From NCBI GenBank assembly GCA_964636085.1, contig CAZWPQ010000046.1:1-15096 (forward strand): a stretch of DNA of 15,096 nucleotides, given 5' to 3'. Below are positions 1 through 15,096 of the stretch, piece after piece. The first letter of the stretch is position 1; each line of letters begins with the position of its first letter. Below the pieces are notes generated by a model, which searched no databases, was not told the origin of the DNA, and saw only the letters and a program-made list of their open reading frames with translations. This DNA comes from an uncultured Nitrososphaerota archaeon. GTDB lineage: Archaea; Asgardarchaeota; Njordarchaeia; Njordarchaeales; Panguiarchaeaceae. Made by a program: the position numbers and the translations under genes.

Positions 1-1031
1 TGATCTCCACCATGAAGCGGACCATGAAGATAAACACTACCTATAGAGTAGGAAGATCTTACATCAACAAAAGCACTATCATAGGCATCTATAGTAGTGG
101 CATTAGTATTTACCAGATATATCTCCGAGGATCCCTCCCCATGGACATCCATCGATCCACCAACCTCGACATCAGACAAATAGAGGTATGCGGAGTCATG
201 TACATGAAAATTATAGGACTGAAAGCCTCTACATGTATCTATGGTAAGGTTTGAAAAGCCGTAGCCATAAGCATTAAGATTAGGAATACCAGATGTATTC
301 AGCCCGGATATATAAACCCCAGAATACTCACGTACCTCAATACTAAGCGCAGATCCAGAGAAAGTAGACCCAGAAATCCGCAACGAGGCATAATCCACCA
401 ATCTTATGTCAATACCACTCATCAAGGCCCCAGTAATATTAGCGGTCGAATTACCATACATATAGAAATGATTGATACTGATGGATCCCTGTGTTGCCTC
501 AAAATAGGAATAATCATTCATCTCAATCCTCTCCAGATAGGTATCAGAAGACAAGAAATACATGCCTGAGTAATCATGCAGAACAATCTGAGGAGCAAAG
601 TTCAAGGAATCCATCAAAACACCATTAAAAACAACCATAGAGGAATCATACGCTTCCACAAACAATGAAGCATCCCCACCAAACCTAAAAGTTGAGTTCC
701 TTATATATACTCGTGCATTTCCCTTCGTAATTATCAGTGCATATGGAGACTCGGGTTTCGTGTACATAAAAGTAACATTCTCCAACAATACTATTGAATC
801 ACCAAACACATAAATTGGCTCAGAGATGGTCAAATTCCTAATAATAACATCGAACGAATCTACTCCACTTGCCTTGAGCCTAACACTATTATCAAACCAA
901 GGTATGCTACCACCTTCTTTCGTAGGCCTTCCCTCTCCTACACTAAAAAATGGATTACCCTCTACAGAAAAAATATTTGCTGTGGCAACCACCAATAATA
1001 GACATATGATAGCCCCACTATACCTACACAT
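1..1031 (-). CDS. Secreted/surface protein with repetitive beta-strand pattern (beta-helix-like), truncated by the window edge; absent from the ORF track
   Basis: Manual translation from ATG at 1031 is open for 343 codons to the window start: MCRYSGAIICLLLVVATANIFSVEG...LLENVTF...VYIRNSTF...EAYDSS...YMYGNSTANITG...DAYDSAFVDV. It has a hydrophobic N-terminal signal peptide, several N-x-S/T sequons and recurring hxhxDxS/hxNxT turns. A GGTGGGTG SD-like motif lies upstream. Confidence 0.8.
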   Translation of the reverse strand, partial: MCRYSGAIICLLLVVATANIFSVEGNPFFSVGEGRPTKEGGSIPWFDNSVRLKASGVDSFDVIIRNLTISEPIYVFGDSIVLLENVTFMYTKPESPYALIITKGNARVYIRNSTFRFGGDASLFVEAYDSSMVVFNGVLMDSLNFAPQIVLHDYSGMYFLSSDTYLERIEMNDYSYFEATQGSISINHFYMYGNSTANITGALMSGIDIRLVDYASLRISGSTFSGSALSIEVREYSGVYISGLNTSGIPNLNAYGYGFSNLTIDTCRGFQSYNFHVHDSAYLYLSDVEVGGSMDVHGEGSSEIYLVNTNATTIDAYDSAFVDVRSSYSIGSVYLHGPLHGGD

Positions 1032-2618: not shown

Positions 2619-3149
2619 TTATGAGATTTTTGCTTTTATTGTCTCTATTATTGCTTTTTCTTGGAGCCTTAGTGCTTGAAGCTCTTGGCTTTTTGAGAGA
2701 ATCTCGGATTTTATTCTGGCTCTATCCTTGGCAAGTTTTAATAATCCAGTGGCATCTATTCTGCCTGCTTTTCCAATTATTTTTTCCGCTCTCTCAAGCC
2801 ATTTTTCGGCTTCTATTATATAGATCACTGTTGCCTCCTCATTAAGCAAACCTTCATAAAAAGACATTCCATGGAGCGTGGATTGCAGGGTATAGTACTT
2901 ATCGAGGAGATCTTTTTCCCTTAGACCAATCAGTATACTGCTAAACACAGGAATGGCAATATTTATTTTCTTTGTCTCTTCATAGGGGATCTTCGCAGCA
3001 ACCATTATTGCTTTTCTCATAGTTTCTACAACCAACCATGCCTTCGCAGCAGCGTCCCTAATATCGCCTTCTTTTAGTAGATTCTTTGCCTCTTCATAGA
3101 CTAGCCAAGCTTCTGAAACTAGCTTATGAACGTCCACATAAGACACCAT
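2619..3149 (-). CDS. PaREP1-family (HEPN-fold) protein with C-terminal coiled-coil-like extension
   Basis: Motifs EEAKNLLKEGDIRDAAAKAW and LHGMSFYEG match the PaREP1 pattern (GD..QA.EK.W ... LH...FYE). Confidence 0.75.
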   Translation of the reverse strand: MVSYVDVHKLVSEAWLVYEEAKNLLKEGDIRDAAAKAWLVVETMRKAIMVAAKIPYEETKKINIAIPVFSSILIGLREKDLLDKYYTLQSTLHGMSFYEGLLNEEATVIYIIEAEKWLERAEKIIGKAGRIDATGLLKLAKDRARIKSEILSKSQELQALRLQEKAIIETIKAKIS

Positions 3150-5190: not shown

Positions 5191-5563
5191 AATAAACACC
5201 AAGTACTCACTAATACAAATAGAACCATGCATAAAAATACGGTGCAATCCACAAAATGAATGTTCGCCAGTAAGGGGATAAATTATGTCTCTTGAGTTAT
5301 TCTAAACTTAGCGGGAACCAGCATAGGTATGCATGGTATCTAGGATTGTTGTTACTGCATCAGAAGTTTTATTATTCAAAAATTTTTTATATTATAATTT
5401 AAAGACTTGTAACCCCCAATTCTACCCCCACTATTTGTTGGTCAATTTCTCCCAATCACTGCTTTTGTCCTTAGTATCATCAAGAGCCATAGGTATATCA
5501 AAAGTATATGAAGGGCATAGTAGATCCGACCATTGCTTCGTTCTATAAGGATAAACTGCGGGA

Positions 5564-6703
5564 TTATTCCCCATATCTATATATGGCATCATTGGGGACT
5601 CTCCTAGGTTTTTCTGTTACGGTAAGCCCGGTGGTTTGATCTATAGTATATGGCATCTTTACTATCCTGTGTAAATCATAGCGACCAGTTTTATCCCGGA
5701 AATTATAGTTGTCTACAAGACGGCCTAGCGCCGATATTATTTCTTCTATTTCCTCTACCCTAAATTCTATGCCATCGGATGGATCACAGATATATATGTG
5801 ATATCCTTTTTTACCACTAAATAAAATCCTAGTGTTGTATCCTAATGACTCCAGATACATCTTTATATGGCGTATCTTCTCTTCCAAATTCTTTTTTATC
5901 ATCTCGACATAATACTTGTAATGAATGGGAACATTCTTGTCAGAGACGTCAACATCTAGAACACCAATAACATATGGCAATGGGTGTCCTCTGCCATAAT
6001 ACTCGGCTATTGGGTTTACCATTCTGGCTATGGAATAGTAGAGCTTTATCGGATAGATCCCCCTCTTGAGTAGCCCCCTTATTTCAATCCTAAATTTTTC
6101 CTCTGGGCTATATTTAGGTGTTTTACTAAGCCTTCTCCTAAGACCGACCCACTGCCCTTTATGTGTTAGTATTCTGATGTGTCTCTTGGCTAAATGATCT
6201 ACGATCCATGCAGGAAAACTGTACTGCGAATAATATCTCTCAATACTGTCCTGGTCTGGTCTGAATATGTATATTTCGGCATGATTCTTTGGAATATCTG
6301 GAGATGTTTCCCTTGCCAATATTATACACCGCTTAAACCCAAGAATCTTCTTCTTTTTCAAGTAATACTTAAGCCAAGACTCATCAAGAACCCCCCAGTG
6401 AACCTCCACCATCGTTTTTTCCCCAAAGTTGACACCATCAATCTCACGCTGGATCCCATTTATATTGAACACAACAGAATGCAGAAATCCCATATCTAAC
6501 AGCTTGCTGACAGCGAAAAGGCCCCTATACTCCAGCCACTCGCTCCGAGTCCGCTCATGCCTATTCTTCTTGTATATCACTATGACCCCATCCTTTATTT
6601 TTCTTCTAAATAGCTCCCCACTTAATGGATCCATGTTCTTACCTTCATAGGTACGATTAATATATGTTAATACATCATCGAGATCTCTTTCCTCGATATT
6701 CAT
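5564..6703 (-). CDS. Fusion protein: N-terminal PD-(D/E)xK-like domain plus C-terminal archaeo-eukaryotic primase (PriS-like) catalytic domain
   Basis: AEP motifs: GVLDVD (DxD at 5948-5956), FSGKKGYH (5798-5818) and DLHRIVKMPYT...TG, plus the PriS-like ERYY and KLYYSIA...P elements. The N-terminus has WLE...REIDGV...MVEVH. Start placed at MNIEER (6703) with GGGTG upstream; a TTG at 6754 is possible. Confidence 0.8.
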   Translation of the reverse strand: MNIEERDLDDVLTYINRTYEGKNMDPLSGELFRRKIKDGVIVIYKKNRHERTRSEWLEYRGLFAVSKLLDMGFLHSVVFNINGIQREIDGVNFGEKTMVEVHWGVLDESWLKYYLKKKKILGFKRCIILARETSPDIPKNHAEIYIFRPDQDSIERYYSQYSFPAWIVDHLAKRHIRILTHKGQWVGLRRRLSKTPKYSPEEKFRIEIRGLLKRGIYPIKLYYSIARMVNPIAEYYGRGHPLPYVIGVLDVDVSDKNVPIHYKYYVEMIKKNLEEKIRHIKMYLESLGYNTRILFSGKKGYHIYICDPSDGIEFRVEEIEEIISALGRLVDNYNFRDKTGRYDLHRIVKMPYTIDQTTGLTVTEKPRRVPNDAIYRYGE

Positions 6704-6849
6704 TGTTAGAGAAACACCCTTGAGTATTATTACCAGCTTCAATATGGGCACCAACCATATAATCTATAGAAATTAGACAAATATATATGGCATAACCCAC
6801 CCATACCATTAACAATAACACATAGATAAGACCACATGCTGATGATTAA

Positions 6850-6886
6850 ACAACATATTAATGTTGTATCTTAAAAATAGTTTTTC
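6850..6886. promoter_or_regulatory. Candidate operator palindrome next to a TATA/BRE-like element in the divergent intergenic region
   Basis: ACAACAT-N4-ATGTTGT at 6850-6867; the minus strand reads GAAAAA-CTATTTTTAAG immediately upstream of it. Confidence 0.4.
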
Positions 6887-6899
6887 ATATATTATATTA

Positions 6900-6994
6900 C
6901 CCCCGTTGGCGGTTTTTTGAAAGATGAGCCCCATCTCGGGGCCGATGATTAGTAAAACCGCTGAAATTCGCGAATTTCCACCCGCCAACGGGGG
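6900..6994 (+). ncRNA. Putative structured RNA or cis-element with K-turn / C-D box-like motifs
   Basis: Perfect 13-bp terminal inverted repeat CCCCCGTTGGCGG / CCGCCAACGGGGG; internal GCCCC/GGGGC hairpin flanked by two GATGA motifs; CTGA at 6961-6964; 16-bp palindrome GAAATTCGCGAATTTC at 6963-6978. It is a GC-rich island in AT-rich intergenic DNA. Confidence 0.6.
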
Positions 6995-7068
6995 CCCTCA
7001 CTTGCAGTTATAAGCATGGGGACTTAGATTTGATAAAGTCCACATCGCTCTATTGCAAACTATACAGA

Positions 7069-7698
7069 ATGACTAAATGGAAATGGGATGAGCTCCGGTC
7101 TATACCTAATGTAGTTGTGGCGAAATTGTACGCCATTGAGAAATTCCCATCAATACTTGGTCTTGGTGAAGATAGATTAAGAAGGATGCTTGATAGGTAT
7201 CCTCCTCCGCTTATCTTTCTTCTGCCCAGAAAACGCGCCATTGCTCTATTCTCAATTTTTGCTGGTCTTGTTGCCGAAATGGAGCACCAAAATCCTCCCG
7301 CAAGTTTTGATCTTATAGCCGATTTCTTTGAGGTTGATTTAGAGCAGGATTTGCAATATTATTTGAGGTATAGACTATGCTTATATAAATTGGTGGCGCC
7401 TGTTAGGCATCTACTTGGACTCCCACAAAGGACAGATCCTTATCGCTATGAAGTGTCCCTAAGTGACGCTGAGGCACATCTCCTCATGAGATTTAGTTCA
7501 CCAGCTAGCATTATGAGGGAGATCTATAATATTGCTAAGCTACATAATATTAGAGGCTCGGTAATATTCACATACTCCCTTGTACATACCTTAGACAGAA
7601 TAGCGCGATACCTTAGAATGCGGGAGGAGGGGCTTATTCATAGGTCAATAGACTACTTGGCTAGGAGATATAGGAGTATTCTTGGGGGACTATACTAG
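7069..7698 (+). CDS. Hypothetical alpha-helical protein (weak resemblance to a TFB/cyclin-like repeat)
   Basis: 209-aa ORF from ATG at 7069 (the track starts at TTG 7030). Basic and Leu/Tyr-rich; PASFDLIADFFEVD resembles the TFB PRTLDEIA...VD segment. Confidence 0.65.
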   Translation: MTKWKWDELRSIPNVVVAKLYAIEKFPSILGLGEDRLRRMLDRYPPPLIFLLPRKRAIALFSIFAGLVAEMEHQNPPASFDLIADFFEVDLEQDLQYYLRYRLCLYKLVAPVRHLLGLPQRTDPYRYEVSLSDAEAHLLMRFSSPASIMREIYNIAKLHNIRGSVIFTYSLVHTLDRIARYLRMREEGLIHRSIDYLARRYRSILGGLY

Positions 7699-7724
7699 TG
7701 ATATTGAATAAATTCTTGACAGAT

Positions 7725-10037
7725 CTATTCTAATCTATACTCTACATATGTAGCGAATCTATTTGATTCACGCAATTTTGCCCCAACCAGCTCGGTGTTT
7801 GGATCCGCATATATTCGAAGACCCTCCATTCTTCTCAGGGGTGAGAGATCAATACTGTCAAGTGTACTTATGCATATCCAGAGCTCCTCAAGGTTTCGGC
7901 ATTCTGCTAATGGGGAAAGATCAAGCTCTTCTATCTCGTTGCCCGAGATGCTAAGTACCCTCAGGTTTCTACAATTAGATAGGGGAGACAGGTCCACATA
8001 TTCTAGGTTGTTCATGTCAAGCCATAAGCATTCGAGTTTAACACAGTCGGATAGGGGTGAAAGATCTATCGTATTTAGCCTATTTCCCGATAATTCTAGC
8101 CATCTTAAATATTCACAATGTGAGAGGGGGGATAGGTCTATTCTTTCGATAATATTATTGCTGAGTGATAATTCCTCCAATCGTTGACATATAGAAAGCG
8201 GAGACAGGTCTATTTCTCTTATCCTATTCCCCGCTAGTCCAAGTATTCTAAGTCTTTTGGAGAGAGGCAAACGGGCTAGGTCTATTTCTTCAAGTTTGTT
8301 ATAATTTAGGTATATCTCCTCTATTGTAGGATACACGGCAAGCACCATAAGATCCACACTAGCGATGCCTAGACCCGATAAGTCTATCCCAAAGATACGT
8401 CCATCCCTAGCCATAATTCTTCTCTTTACTGCATTTGTATCGATTCCTAGATTATTGGATAGGGATTTCAGAATCTCATCTACCTTAACGATCTTCTTTA
8501 TTTTCCCATCAATTATCTTGTATCCAAGTTTCTGTATGATCAATTTTGTATCCTCTGGGTGTATCTTGACCATCTTTACGATGGTATCTATGCTTTTCCC
8601 GTCCAAGTTTAGTTTACTCAGGTATTTTCTAACATTATTAAGGAGGCCCTTCCTATACCATAGATTAGAATTAGATGGCGATCTCTCGGCGTGTTTTTTT
8701 AGTAGGGCTATCAAATCCTCTTTTTCGAGGCCCTCTACTTCACTCGTCAGTATCCATCCTTTCGTTCTTAGTGTATCCAATATGTTGCTCACGCGCTGTT
8801 CCCAGTAGTTCCTGCCGTACCACATGCCACTTCTCAGGGATGGAACCGCAGAATCTTTCAGTATTTCCTCGAGGTCTTCCTTCAATATCTTTAGCTTCTT
8901 TATCTCTATGTCTGAAACGATTATCTTTGGATTATTAACTAATTTCTCCTTAACCTTGTTGATGTGATCTATGCTGTAATATACTCCTGGGCGCTTAGAT
9001 GGGACTGCATATTCGCTTAGAGCCAAATATGTCTCTACATCCTCTTTAGATATGTCCAGTTTTTTCGCCAGGATCCCCACGGTAACAACCTTCATCTGCC
9101 TTAGCAATTTTTCTATGGAGCCCAATGGTCCACTAGAAATTTCTTCATATGTAGGCTCATATTCCTTGGCTCTATGTATTGGTGATCCATACTCTATGGG
9201 TCTCGGAGAAACAATGGATGCATGCCTCTTCAAGGATTCTACTACTATCCCGATATCTAATGGTCTATCCTCCTTCTTCTTCTTTAAGCAGGCCAGAATA
9301 ATTTTTTGGAGCCACTCAGGAGAATGCTCCATTGGTTCGAGCTCTCCCTGCGTTATCTTTGCAATCAATTCTAGAGGAGATAGAAACGATGATATTGGAG
9401 GTTTACCCTCGACCATTTCATATAGGAGACATCCAAACTGCCATATGTCTGTTCGCCAGTCAACTCCACCAAATTTCTTTGGATATATCTGCTCTGGGGC
9501 ACTATAGAGTGGAGTCCCTGGATACTTACTAACCGTCGCTGAGACCTTCAATAACATTACTGCTATTCCAAAATCGGAAATCTTTGGAATATCATTCTTA
9601 AAGAGTATGTTCTCAGGTTTTATATCCATATGTACAATCCCATGGTGGTGTATCTTGCTCAATGCCTCGGCGATTTTTATTCCTATGGCTATGGCCCTAT
9701 CCAGCGGGAGTGGGCCACTTTTAAGTAGTGTTCTCAGGCTATAGTCACAGTACTCCATGGCTATCCATGGAATGGGATTTGTATCGTACTCCTCGACATA
9801 TACTATGTCATCCGGATATTTCTTACTCAATATTTTCCATGTTTGGGCTTCCCTAAGGAATTTTTCGATATCATCTTTTGTTAGTGTCTCCGTCACTTCC
9901 AATGATGGTATCTTGATAGCATACTTTTCTCCATTCTTCTCAGCAAGATACACACTAGAGGATCCTCCTCTTCCAATGCATCTCAGTATTTTATAGCCAG
10001 TGACCTCGGCAAACAACTTTGCCGATATACCTCTCAT
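7725..10037 (-). CDS. Hanks-type Ser/Thr protein kinase with central tandem repeats and C-terminal leucine-rich repeats
   Basis: GRGGSSSVY, AIK, FLREA, HMDIKPEN, SDFG, GTPLYSAPE and DIWQFG kinase motifs; about 8 LRRs of 24 aa (LxxLxLxxNxIxxIDLSPLxxC). Confidence 0.93.
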   Translation of the reverse strand: MRGISAKLFAEVTGYKILRCIGRGGSSSVYLAEKNGEKYAIKIPSLEVTETLTKDDIEKFLREAQTWKILSKKYPDDIVYVEEYDTNPIPWIAMEYCDYSLRTLLKSGPLPLDRAIAIGIKIAEALSKIHHHGIVHMDIKPENILFKNDIPKISDFGIAVMLLKVSATVSKYPGTPLYSAPEQIYPKKFGGVDWRTDIWQFGCLLYEMVEGKPPISSFLSPLELIAKITQGELEPMEHSPEWLQKIILACLKKKKEDRPLDIGIVVESLKRHASIVSPRPIEYGSPIHRAKEYEPTYEEISSGPLGSIEKLLRQMKVVTVGILAKKLDISKEDVETYLALSEYAVPSKRPGVYYSIDHINKVKEKLVNNPKIIVSDIEIKKLKILKEDLEEILKDSAVPSLRSGMWYGRNYWEQRVSNILDTLRTKGWILTSEVEGLEKEDLIALLKKHAERSPSNSNLWYRKGLLNNVRKYLSKLNLDGKSIDTIVKMVKIHPEDTKLIIQKLGYKIIDGKIKKIVKVDEILKSLSNNLGIDTNAVKRRIMARDGRIFGIDLSGLGIASVDLMVLAVYPTIEEIYLNYNKLEEIDLARLPLSKRLRILGLAGNRIREIDLSPLSICQRLEELSLSNNIIERIDLSPLSHCEYLRWLELSGNRLNTIDLSPLSDCVKLECLWLDMNNLEYVDLSPLSNCRNLRVLSISGNEIEELDLSPLAECRNLEELWICISTLDSIDLSPLRRMEGLRIYADPNTELVGAKLRESNRFATYVEYRLE
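7800..8396 (-). repeat. LRR-coding tandem repeat with 72-bp period
   Basis: IDLSPL/VDLSPL/LDLSPL recurs every 24 residues. Confidence 0.85.
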
Positions 10038-14393: not shown

Positions 14394-15096
14394 AACTAGC
14401 TTTACTAGAAATTTTATCGGCCTGAGAAGCAACATCTTTATCCTCTTCAATCTACATCCCCGACAGACCTCACTTTGGCTTTTTCGGCGATAAAACAAGA
14501 TATAATCTCAATTATCAGATATAAATGAGAAAAGTAGGGATATCCTTAATGCAATAAAAACTAGAATATGACTGCTTTTATCCATGTTTACTACATTGCA
14601 TATATAAATCTATATGTTTCGCTCTAGATAGGATGATTTACTGGTAATGTTTGCCCCCTTTGGGATATCATCATAAAGACCTTTCACTTATAAGTATACA
14701 TTATCTTAGTTAACTATTTCCACAATGACGGCTTTTTTATTGCCCATCCATCTATGCCAATCTATACTCATTGTCTATCATGGATACCATACATCTAGTC
14801 CACATTAAATACCCTAAGATCCATGGCAAAACTAAGGATACCATCTAACTAGGAACATAATTAACTAGCGCTGATGAATTTCTTCTATAATCTAGCGTAC
14901 ATTTCGTTCATTGTTTTTCTTTATATAATACTCTCATTTCTACTAACTTGTTTTAAAAGATTTTTTCTTATTCTAATCATTTTCGATCCTTTGGGGGTTC
15001 AAATTGAGAAAATACCTGATTTGGACTCTATTGGTCGCGTTGCTGGTAGGTTCTTCCATCGGATCTACCAGCGGACTACATAATATGGATCATCTG

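Follow-up and report, generated by a model that had tools for sequence, protein, structure and literature searches.

Two divergently transcribed genes, A and B, in a 15,096-bp stretch of Asgard archaeal DNA (hereafter, the window) appear to form a conserved two-gene module that has so far been found only in Asgard archaea. That window makes up an entire contig (G000:C46) of a metagenome-assembled genome of 2.41 Mb (83% complete, 39.3% GC). Gene A (5564-6754, - strand) encodes a 396-aa protein in which a nuclease domain is fused to an archaeo-eukaryotic primase (AEP) domain, gene B (7069-7698, + strand) encodes an all-helical protein of 209 aa, and the spacer between the two genes contains a GC-rich structured element (6900-6994). 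AEPs serve as primases in both archaea and eukaryotes, and the latter have their closest known relatives among the Asgard archaea. A preliminary description of the locus had proposed a three-part system consisting of the primase-nuclease, the structured element and the helical protein. We estimate the probability of a two-gene module, as opposed to such a three-part system, at roughly 60%. The link between A and B held in a comparison of 400 Asgard genomes, with A located within 4 kb of B in eight of the nine B-encoding genomes, whereas the element, the presumed third part, has no counterpart at the related loci that were compared. Thus, a three-part hypothesis derived from a single genome becomes a two-gene module with comparative support, and the conspicuous GC-rich element is best treated as a separate, lineage-specific feature.

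The general layout of the locus was confirmed, with two divergent genes positioned around a palindrome and the strongest GC-rich structure of the window, and with unrelated genes, coding for an S9 peptidase and a leucine-rich repeat (LRR) protein kinase, on the flanks. The boundaries of the spacer had to be revised. Alignments with homologues placed the start of A at TTG 6754 or GTG 6751 rather than at ATG 6703, because KLVIILKG, which forms the first strand of the 396-aa product, is conserved, and that of B at ATG 7069 (a start at 7030 would yield 222 aa). With these start codons, the divergent spacer (6755-7068) is 314 nt long, not about 365 nt as given previously. The AT-rich half of the spacer includes the operator-like palindrome (ACAACAT-ATTA-ATGTTGT, 7+7 nt; 6850-6867), which was read from the sequence and is without comparative support. 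A repeat search additionally revealed a 10-nt inverted repeat, complementary at 9 of 10 positions (7016-7025 and 7036-7045), which brackets a TATA-like TTTGATAAA some 30 nt ahead of the B start codon. The repeat spans the putative promoter of B, as assigned from position only, and is a candidate operator.

A predicted nuclease-primase fusion

The primase-nuclease reading of the 396-aa protein (P0001) was borne out by Pfam, by a family profile and by catalytic motifs. Sequence comparisons support an architecture in which a PD-(D/E)xK nuclease domain similar to those of AF1548, NucS and Can2 (residues about 1-170; 6245-6754, - strand) is fused to a PriS-like AEP primase-polymerase domain (residues about 180-396; 5567-6217, - strand). 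Residues 266-325 matched the Pfam family DNA_primase_S (PF01896) with an E-value of 1.2e-5; the score of the single protein was 26.2 bits, against a cut-off of 26.8 bits, and rose to 29.1 bits when neighbouring in-frame stretches were counted. A profile of 21 members of the A family matched PriS of S. solfataricus (1zt2; 2.9e-6), the P. furiosus primase (7.6e-6) and CAPP Prim-Pol (1e-3). AEP motifs I (DxD), II (sxH) and III (hD/R) are all present in A; D267, D269, S313, G314, G317, H319, D360 and R363 are invariant among the 21 sequences, and H362 is nearly so. Judging from these residues, the AEP active site of A is intact. The nuclease domain is assignable to the restriction-endonuclease-like fold. 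The AlphaFold2 (AF2) model of A has a pLDDT of 66 overall and of 77-89 at residues 101-150, and a Foldseek comparison with the PDB returned only weak matches, with LigD Pol among the top ones.

The same genome also encodes canonical PriS (contig C6, 112.6 bits) and PriL (contig C34, 147.2 bits), which marks A as an accessory enzyme. The third AEP match of this genome is weak and is located within a 402-aa open reading frame (ORF; G000:C1:135741-136175, PF01896, 22.7 bits).

A helical protein is the recurrent neighbour of the fusion

The two families were tallied over the 400 Asgard genomes with an 8-sequence B profile and a 21-sequence A profile, with the near-identical loci L032 and L051 counted once. 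In the eight genomes with A and B on the same contig, their relative orientation varies. The genes are divergent in G000, G111, G150 and G151, and co-directional, with B first, in G083, where B overlaps the start of A by 4 nt, and in G183, where 47 nt separate the two. In G179, A and B are 3.9 kb apart and, in G165, 1.9 kb apart with a gene of the short-chain dehydrogenase/reductase (SDR) type in between, whereas in the ninth genome, G081, B is found on a 2.8-kb contig. The association between the primase gene and the neighbouring ORF, known previously from one genome, therefore extends to several Asgard lineages.

The pairs became apparent only with a profile of distant B homologues, since tblastn of B against the AEP loci produced no match. 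A two-sequence B profile yielded, in the 400 genomes, weak matches that span most of B and lie within longer ORFs, and this search, conducted with B only, led to loci with an AEP-nuclease gene next door. In G183, the AEP that follows B is 40% identical to residues 167-386 of A, and in G083 a full-length A homologue adjoins the B match. A hidden Markov model of the distant B proteins further matched divergent upstream genes in L026 (Heimdallarchaeota, 1.2e-8) and L032 (1.1e-6) as well as a 481-aa ORF in G150, and the extended G150 contig contains a full-length A homologue (E 3.6e-129) divergent from that ORF. In an all-against-all BLAST of the neighbouring genes, A and B alone clustered across loci and no other neighbour was conserved; the rest include SDR, NAD synthase, acyl-CoA dehydrogenase, CLP1, an LRR protein, a Type I restriction R subunit, a STAND NTPase and a MULE-like transposase. 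In an IQ-TREE phylogeny of 19 A sequences, members linked to B are found in each of the four main clades, and loci without B are scattered among them. Hence, the pair appears to be ancestral to the family, with B lost or moved on repeated occasions.

B itself (P0002/P0007) has one close homologue (P0008, 67% identity), and its distant homologues of 290-550 aa are encoded beside AEP-nuclease genes in G083, G183, G150, G151, G111, G179 and G165. The family is variable: lengths span 209-546 aa, insertions occur and the G083 protein has a C-terminal Zn ribbon, yet the alignment retains the motifs LPxRxxI..FS and RxxLxLYxLxxPFRxxLG, and the signature LYxLxxPxRxxxG is limited to the recognised B proteins. 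No match to B was found in Pfam, PADLOC, PHROGs or the PDB (where the profile search returned nothing below E 0.23), nor in the JGI metagenomes, and the ESM Atlas contained no usable neighbour. AEPs usually require a helical accessory module, such as the PriL C-terminal domain (PriL-CTD), PriX or PriCT (PMC5862659). A carries no such module in cis, which makes B a plausible functional analogue. A role of B as a primase accessory subunit is thus plausible from linkage and adjacency, not from homology. The more specific suggestion of the preliminary description, that B is PriL- or PriX-like, found no support in its sequence, with no conserved cysteines for an Fe-S cluster of the PriL-CTD type in the B alignment.

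Alternatively, B could be a transcription regulator of A rather than a subunit, with the spacer palindromes as its operators. The divergent arrangement in four lineages, the inverted repeat over the putative B promoter and the presence of repeats in the spacer of L048 are compatible with this possibility, but no helix-turn-helix (HTH) or winged HTH domain was detected in B, the B proteins vary in length between 209 and 546 aa and contain large insertions, and the overlap of the co-directional genes in G083 suggests that the partners are co-translated. We regard regulation of A by B as quite unlikely.

The structured element is specific to one lineage

The GC-rich element (95 nt, 55% GC) is more than a product of chance. 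It is closed by a perfect 13-bp inverted repeat, CCCCCGTTGGCGG/CCGCCAACGGGGG, at 6900-6912 and 6982-6994, which encloses a 5-bp GCCCC/GGGGC hairpin, facing GAUGA/GAUGA loops and a 16-nt palindrome, GAAATTCGCGAATTTC. The predicted folds have energies of -43.3 (+ strand) and -49.8 (- strand) kcal/mol, with z-scores of -3.3 and -4.2, respectively, and the element is the most stable of 999 overlapping 120-nt segments of the contig (-50.1 vs mean -23.8, sd 5.6). Across the 2.41-Mb genome, only 13 perfect inverted repeats have arms of at least 13 nt and loops of 3-120 nt, 2 of them GC-rich, and only 0.5% of 100-nt segments reach 55% GC.

The stems are all Watson-Crick, with no G-U pairs, and so fit either strand, and action as RNA or as DNA. 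The fold of the - strand is 6 kcal/mol more stable than that of the + strand. Going by position only, plausible archaeal signals exist on both strands. The + strand has TTAAAAATA about 25 nt ahead of the stem, but an internal U6 and no terminator; the - strand has TTTATCAAAT some 25-30 nt ahead of the stem, with a T5 run 20 nt beyond it. By the same positional criterion, the latter would plausibly yield a small RNA (sRNA) of ~125 nt transcribed in the same direction as A. Most likely, the element is a small structured RNA gene, or else a local element within the spacer, either regulatory DNA or a leader.

The element is present in a single copy in its genome. A covariance model (R1, 24 base pairs) retrieved only the element itself from 22 related loci (180 kb) and from 14 genomes (its own and 13 others of the order), and BLAST against these 14 genomes produced random short matches only. 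There was no match at E<=1 between 6900-6994 and Rfam 15, and no match to the element in plasmid and phage records or IMG/VR. This comparison left out the contigs of P0004 (A, 55% identity), P0006 and P0008 (the close B homologue). At other A-B loci the spacer can be very different or missing: that of L032 is 132 nt long with 21% GC, and in G083 and G183 there is no spacer between A and B, hence no room for an element.

These results bear directly on the three-part system, in which the element, in the form of single-stranded DNA or an RNA hairpin, would provide the AEP-nuclease with its template, guide or priming site and B would act as an accessory. The element is non-random and is located between the two genes, its all-Watson-Crick stems are as compatible with a hairpin or cruciform of DNA as with an RNA, and some plasmid primases recognise hairpin sites. 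However, homologues of A occur without the element, an outcome that the preliminary description had itself listed as a refutation; the 22 loci and the 13 other genomes of the order contain no counterpart, nor was one identified at any other A-B locus examined, and in two lineages the genes overlap or adjoin each other. We therefore consider this proposal very unlikely, and the element, though real, is a lineage-specific orphan that on present evidence lies outside the A-B module. The analogy with retrons and DRT systems (defence-associated reverse transcriptases) fared no better: the likeness is confined to a superficial layout, a polymerase gene beside a structured non-coding element, whereas A is an AEP and not a reverse transcriptase, and neither the covariance model nor BLAST uncovered, in the same loci and genomes, a structured non-coding RNA conserved beside the polymerase gene.

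Several other identities of the element were considered and rejected. It is not a dispersed repeat or miniature inverted-repeat transposable element, being single-copy and having no flanking terminal repeats. Visual inspection finds GAUGA and CUGA, separated by a 12-nt spacer, at 6944-6964, but the element was assigned to neither the C/D nor the H/ACA class of sRNA, likewise by eye, given the internal position of the boxes and the lack of a correctly spaced D' box and of an ACA after the stem. A GC-rich stretch in the L026 spacer was discarded as an analogue of the element, with z-scores of only -1.3 and -1.6 and no sequence similarity.

Distribution and possible roles of the module

Genes of the A family are rare. 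Only four close relatives of A were found among 5.8 billion clustered proteins, and a profile search with A retrieved 108 representatives at E<1e-3, 51 of them at E<1e-10. Strong matches (E<1e-90) were present in 13 of the 400 Asgard genomes (about 3%) and were spread over several families, with Njord-, Hermod-, Prometh- and Heimdallarchaeota among the lineage names of the homologues. A homologue in the same genus, named Candidatus Njordarchaeota, places the organism among the Asgard archaea; its contig is 2.1 kb long and stops within the gene. The distribution is patchy and the genomic context shifts between loci, which suggests an accessory role in repair or conflict rather than in chromosome replication.

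We propose that B is a fast-evolving, all-helical dedicated partner that would bind the AEP-nuclease as a non-catalytic subunit, filling the role that PriL-CTD, PriX or PriCT plays for other AEPs, or else targeting or regulating the enzyme. The putative complex might act on DNA ends, nicks or gaps, with the nuclease domain making or trimming a 3' end and the AEP domain priming or extending. If so, the module could show a new way in which priming or extension is coupled to the cleavage of DNA, be it for end joining, for nick-primed synthesis or for defence, and B could represent a new kind of AEP accessory subunit. Far more tentatively, A and B may constitute an undescribed, Asgard-specific nuclease-coupled primase-polymerase with an obligatory helical subunit of a new class, unrelated to PriL, PriX and PriCT, which would act in break repair or mobile-element conflict and, in Njordarchaeota, may also have recruited the structured nucleic-acid element as a substrate or regulator; we see this as possible but doubtful.

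A patchy distribution and variable contexts would also fit mobile genetic elements (MGEs): the pair might serve for the replication of a small element, integrated or degraded, whose origin would be the structured element. AEPs encoded by MGEs are common (PMC5862659), and a MULE-like transposase adjoins A in L034. However, integrase, helicase and capsid genes are missing around the pair, as is any third conserved gene, no terminal repeats were found around 5200-7800, IMG/VR contained no relatives of A, the structured element has no DNA match in plasmid or phage records, and the AEP is PriS-like rather than a PrimPol-PV1 with a PriCT domain. In an empty-site comparison within the genus, G002:C48 shared only the peptidase gene and showed no synteny. 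An MGE replication module seems distinctly unlikely.

Alternatively, the pair might belong to an anti-virus defence system in which a nuclease effector is coupled to a polymerase. The nuclease domain resembles effectors of the Can2/Card1/NucS type, the distribution is patchy, and some neighbours are defence-like, namely a Type I restriction R subunit (L046), a STAND NTPase (L030), a SIR2-TPR protein (L024) and, in the window, a HEPN/PaREP1 protein. Neither A nor B, however, has a match in PADLOC, and most neighbours are metabolic genes (SDR, NAD synthase, acyl-CoA dehydrogenase, peptidase). Accordingly, a defence function of the pair is unlikely.

Comparison with known systems helps to delimit the two-gene module. 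Like PriS with PriL or PriX, it combines a PriS-like core (DxD, SGxxGxH, D-H-R), with a zinc knuckle in most A members, and a separately encoded all-helical partner, but A has an N-terminal PD-(D/E)xK domain, its genome has its own PriS and PriL, the family is found in only about 3% of Asgard genomes, and B has neither detectable similarity to PriL or PriX nor Fe-S cysteines. MGE-type PrimPols (AgaPP with its PriCT-helicase, PMC11724360; PolpTN2/pRN1, PMC5862659), which have reported roles in replication and end joining, are likewise accessory AEPs with an adjacent helical partner; unlike them, A-B has no detected helicase, PriCT or MGE hallmark, and the nuclease is fused in cis. With LigD-type non-homologous end joining, A would share an AEP polymerase and an end-processing nuclease in one protein, although its predicted nuclease is of the PD-(D/E)xK type whereas that of LigD is a phosphoesterase, and no ligase domain or Ku neighbour was seen for A. 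Finally, A differs from NucS/EndoMS, AF1548 and Can2/Card1 in having no CARF or NucS N-terminal domain, in the replacement of K119 by H in P0001 and in its fusion to a polymerase.

Several observations weigh against a conserved two-gene module with the activities proposed above. B was found nowhere in G226, G247, G077 and G185 at E<=1e-4, nor is it present in L030 and L034 over the 1.9-2.9 kb that lie upstream of A, so that A can occur without detectable B, as it does in 5 of 13 genomes. The comparison of B with PriL of the same genome gave an hhalign probability of 0.1%, and the all-helical AF2 model of B, at a pLDDT of 43, is unusable and too poor for a fold search; the ESM Atlas model has a pTM of 0.25. 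Most family members keep the nuclease motif D106...E117-x-K119, whereas P0001 and its closest relative, P0004, retain D106 and E117 but have ExH in place of ExK, and the H..C..C zinc knuckle found between AEP motifs I and II in most members is lost in the same two proteins; accordingly, their activities may depart from the family norm. Furthermore, since the comparison of the structured element did not include the closest relatives, the element may have a recent, lineage-specific role with A or B.

Other features of the window and related loci

In two Promethearchaeota/Hermodarchaeota genomes, the A homologue is located directly downstream of a Top6A/Spo11-like gene (TP6A_N and Toprim domains, E 2.5e-53; L024 8738-11212 and L023 1-1904, the same as L054 and L052). 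No B or Top6B gene is adjacent at these loci, and a gene encoding a Roadblock/LC7-Zn-ribbon protein is close by in both. Two copies of A are degraded: that of G183 (L047 4833-5549, - strand) is missing the first ~130 residues of the nuclease domain, and that of G185 (L025/L055) is split into two ORFs by an in-frame TAG.

Sensor-type proteins adjoin the module in three loci, namely an LRR Ser/Thr kinase in the window (7725-10037, - strand), an LRR protein in G083 (L046 3296-4684, - strand) and a 939-aa STAND-like NTPase in L030 (3-2819, - strand), the last of which shows BLAST similarity to the kinase-LRR protein of the window. The PaREP1/HEPN-domain protein is encoded at 2619-3149 (- strand), 2.4 kb from the module. 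In G083, an HsdR gene (SWI2_SNF2, T1RH-like_C; L046 7793-10429, - strand) lies immediately downstream of the A homologue and is convergent to it. The B-A divergent spacer of G150 contains two AT-rich direct repeats of roughly 55 nt (L048 about 9318-9375 and 9536-9592), each with a small GTATC/GATAC hairpin and a tail ending in TTCGCAAGTA; they are candidate operators, unrelated to the window element.

ARAGORN found no tRNA in the window or the loci searched, and the sole Rfam match over the window and 9 further loci, to STnc420 at 14856-14930, was sub-threshold and dismissed as spurious. Elsewhere in the genome, G000:C40 includes a GC-rich stretch of about 250-300 nt (about 7020-7320; L064 3520-3780) that carries a perfect, GC-rich inverted repeat of 13 bp, AGGCCGGCCCGGG; no Rfam family matches the stretch at E<=0.1, and it may be a large structured RNA missed by current models. 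In the window, a long strand-specific hairpin (1058-1107, - strand, within 1000-1170) is located immediately 5' of the ATG of the ORF at 3-1031 (- strand). Its energy is -55.7 kcal/mol (z -6.0, - strand), and a 120-nt scan around it reached values down to -48 on the - strand vs about -21 on the + strand. Given its G-U pairs, this hairpin is probably a real RNA structure in a 5' leader.

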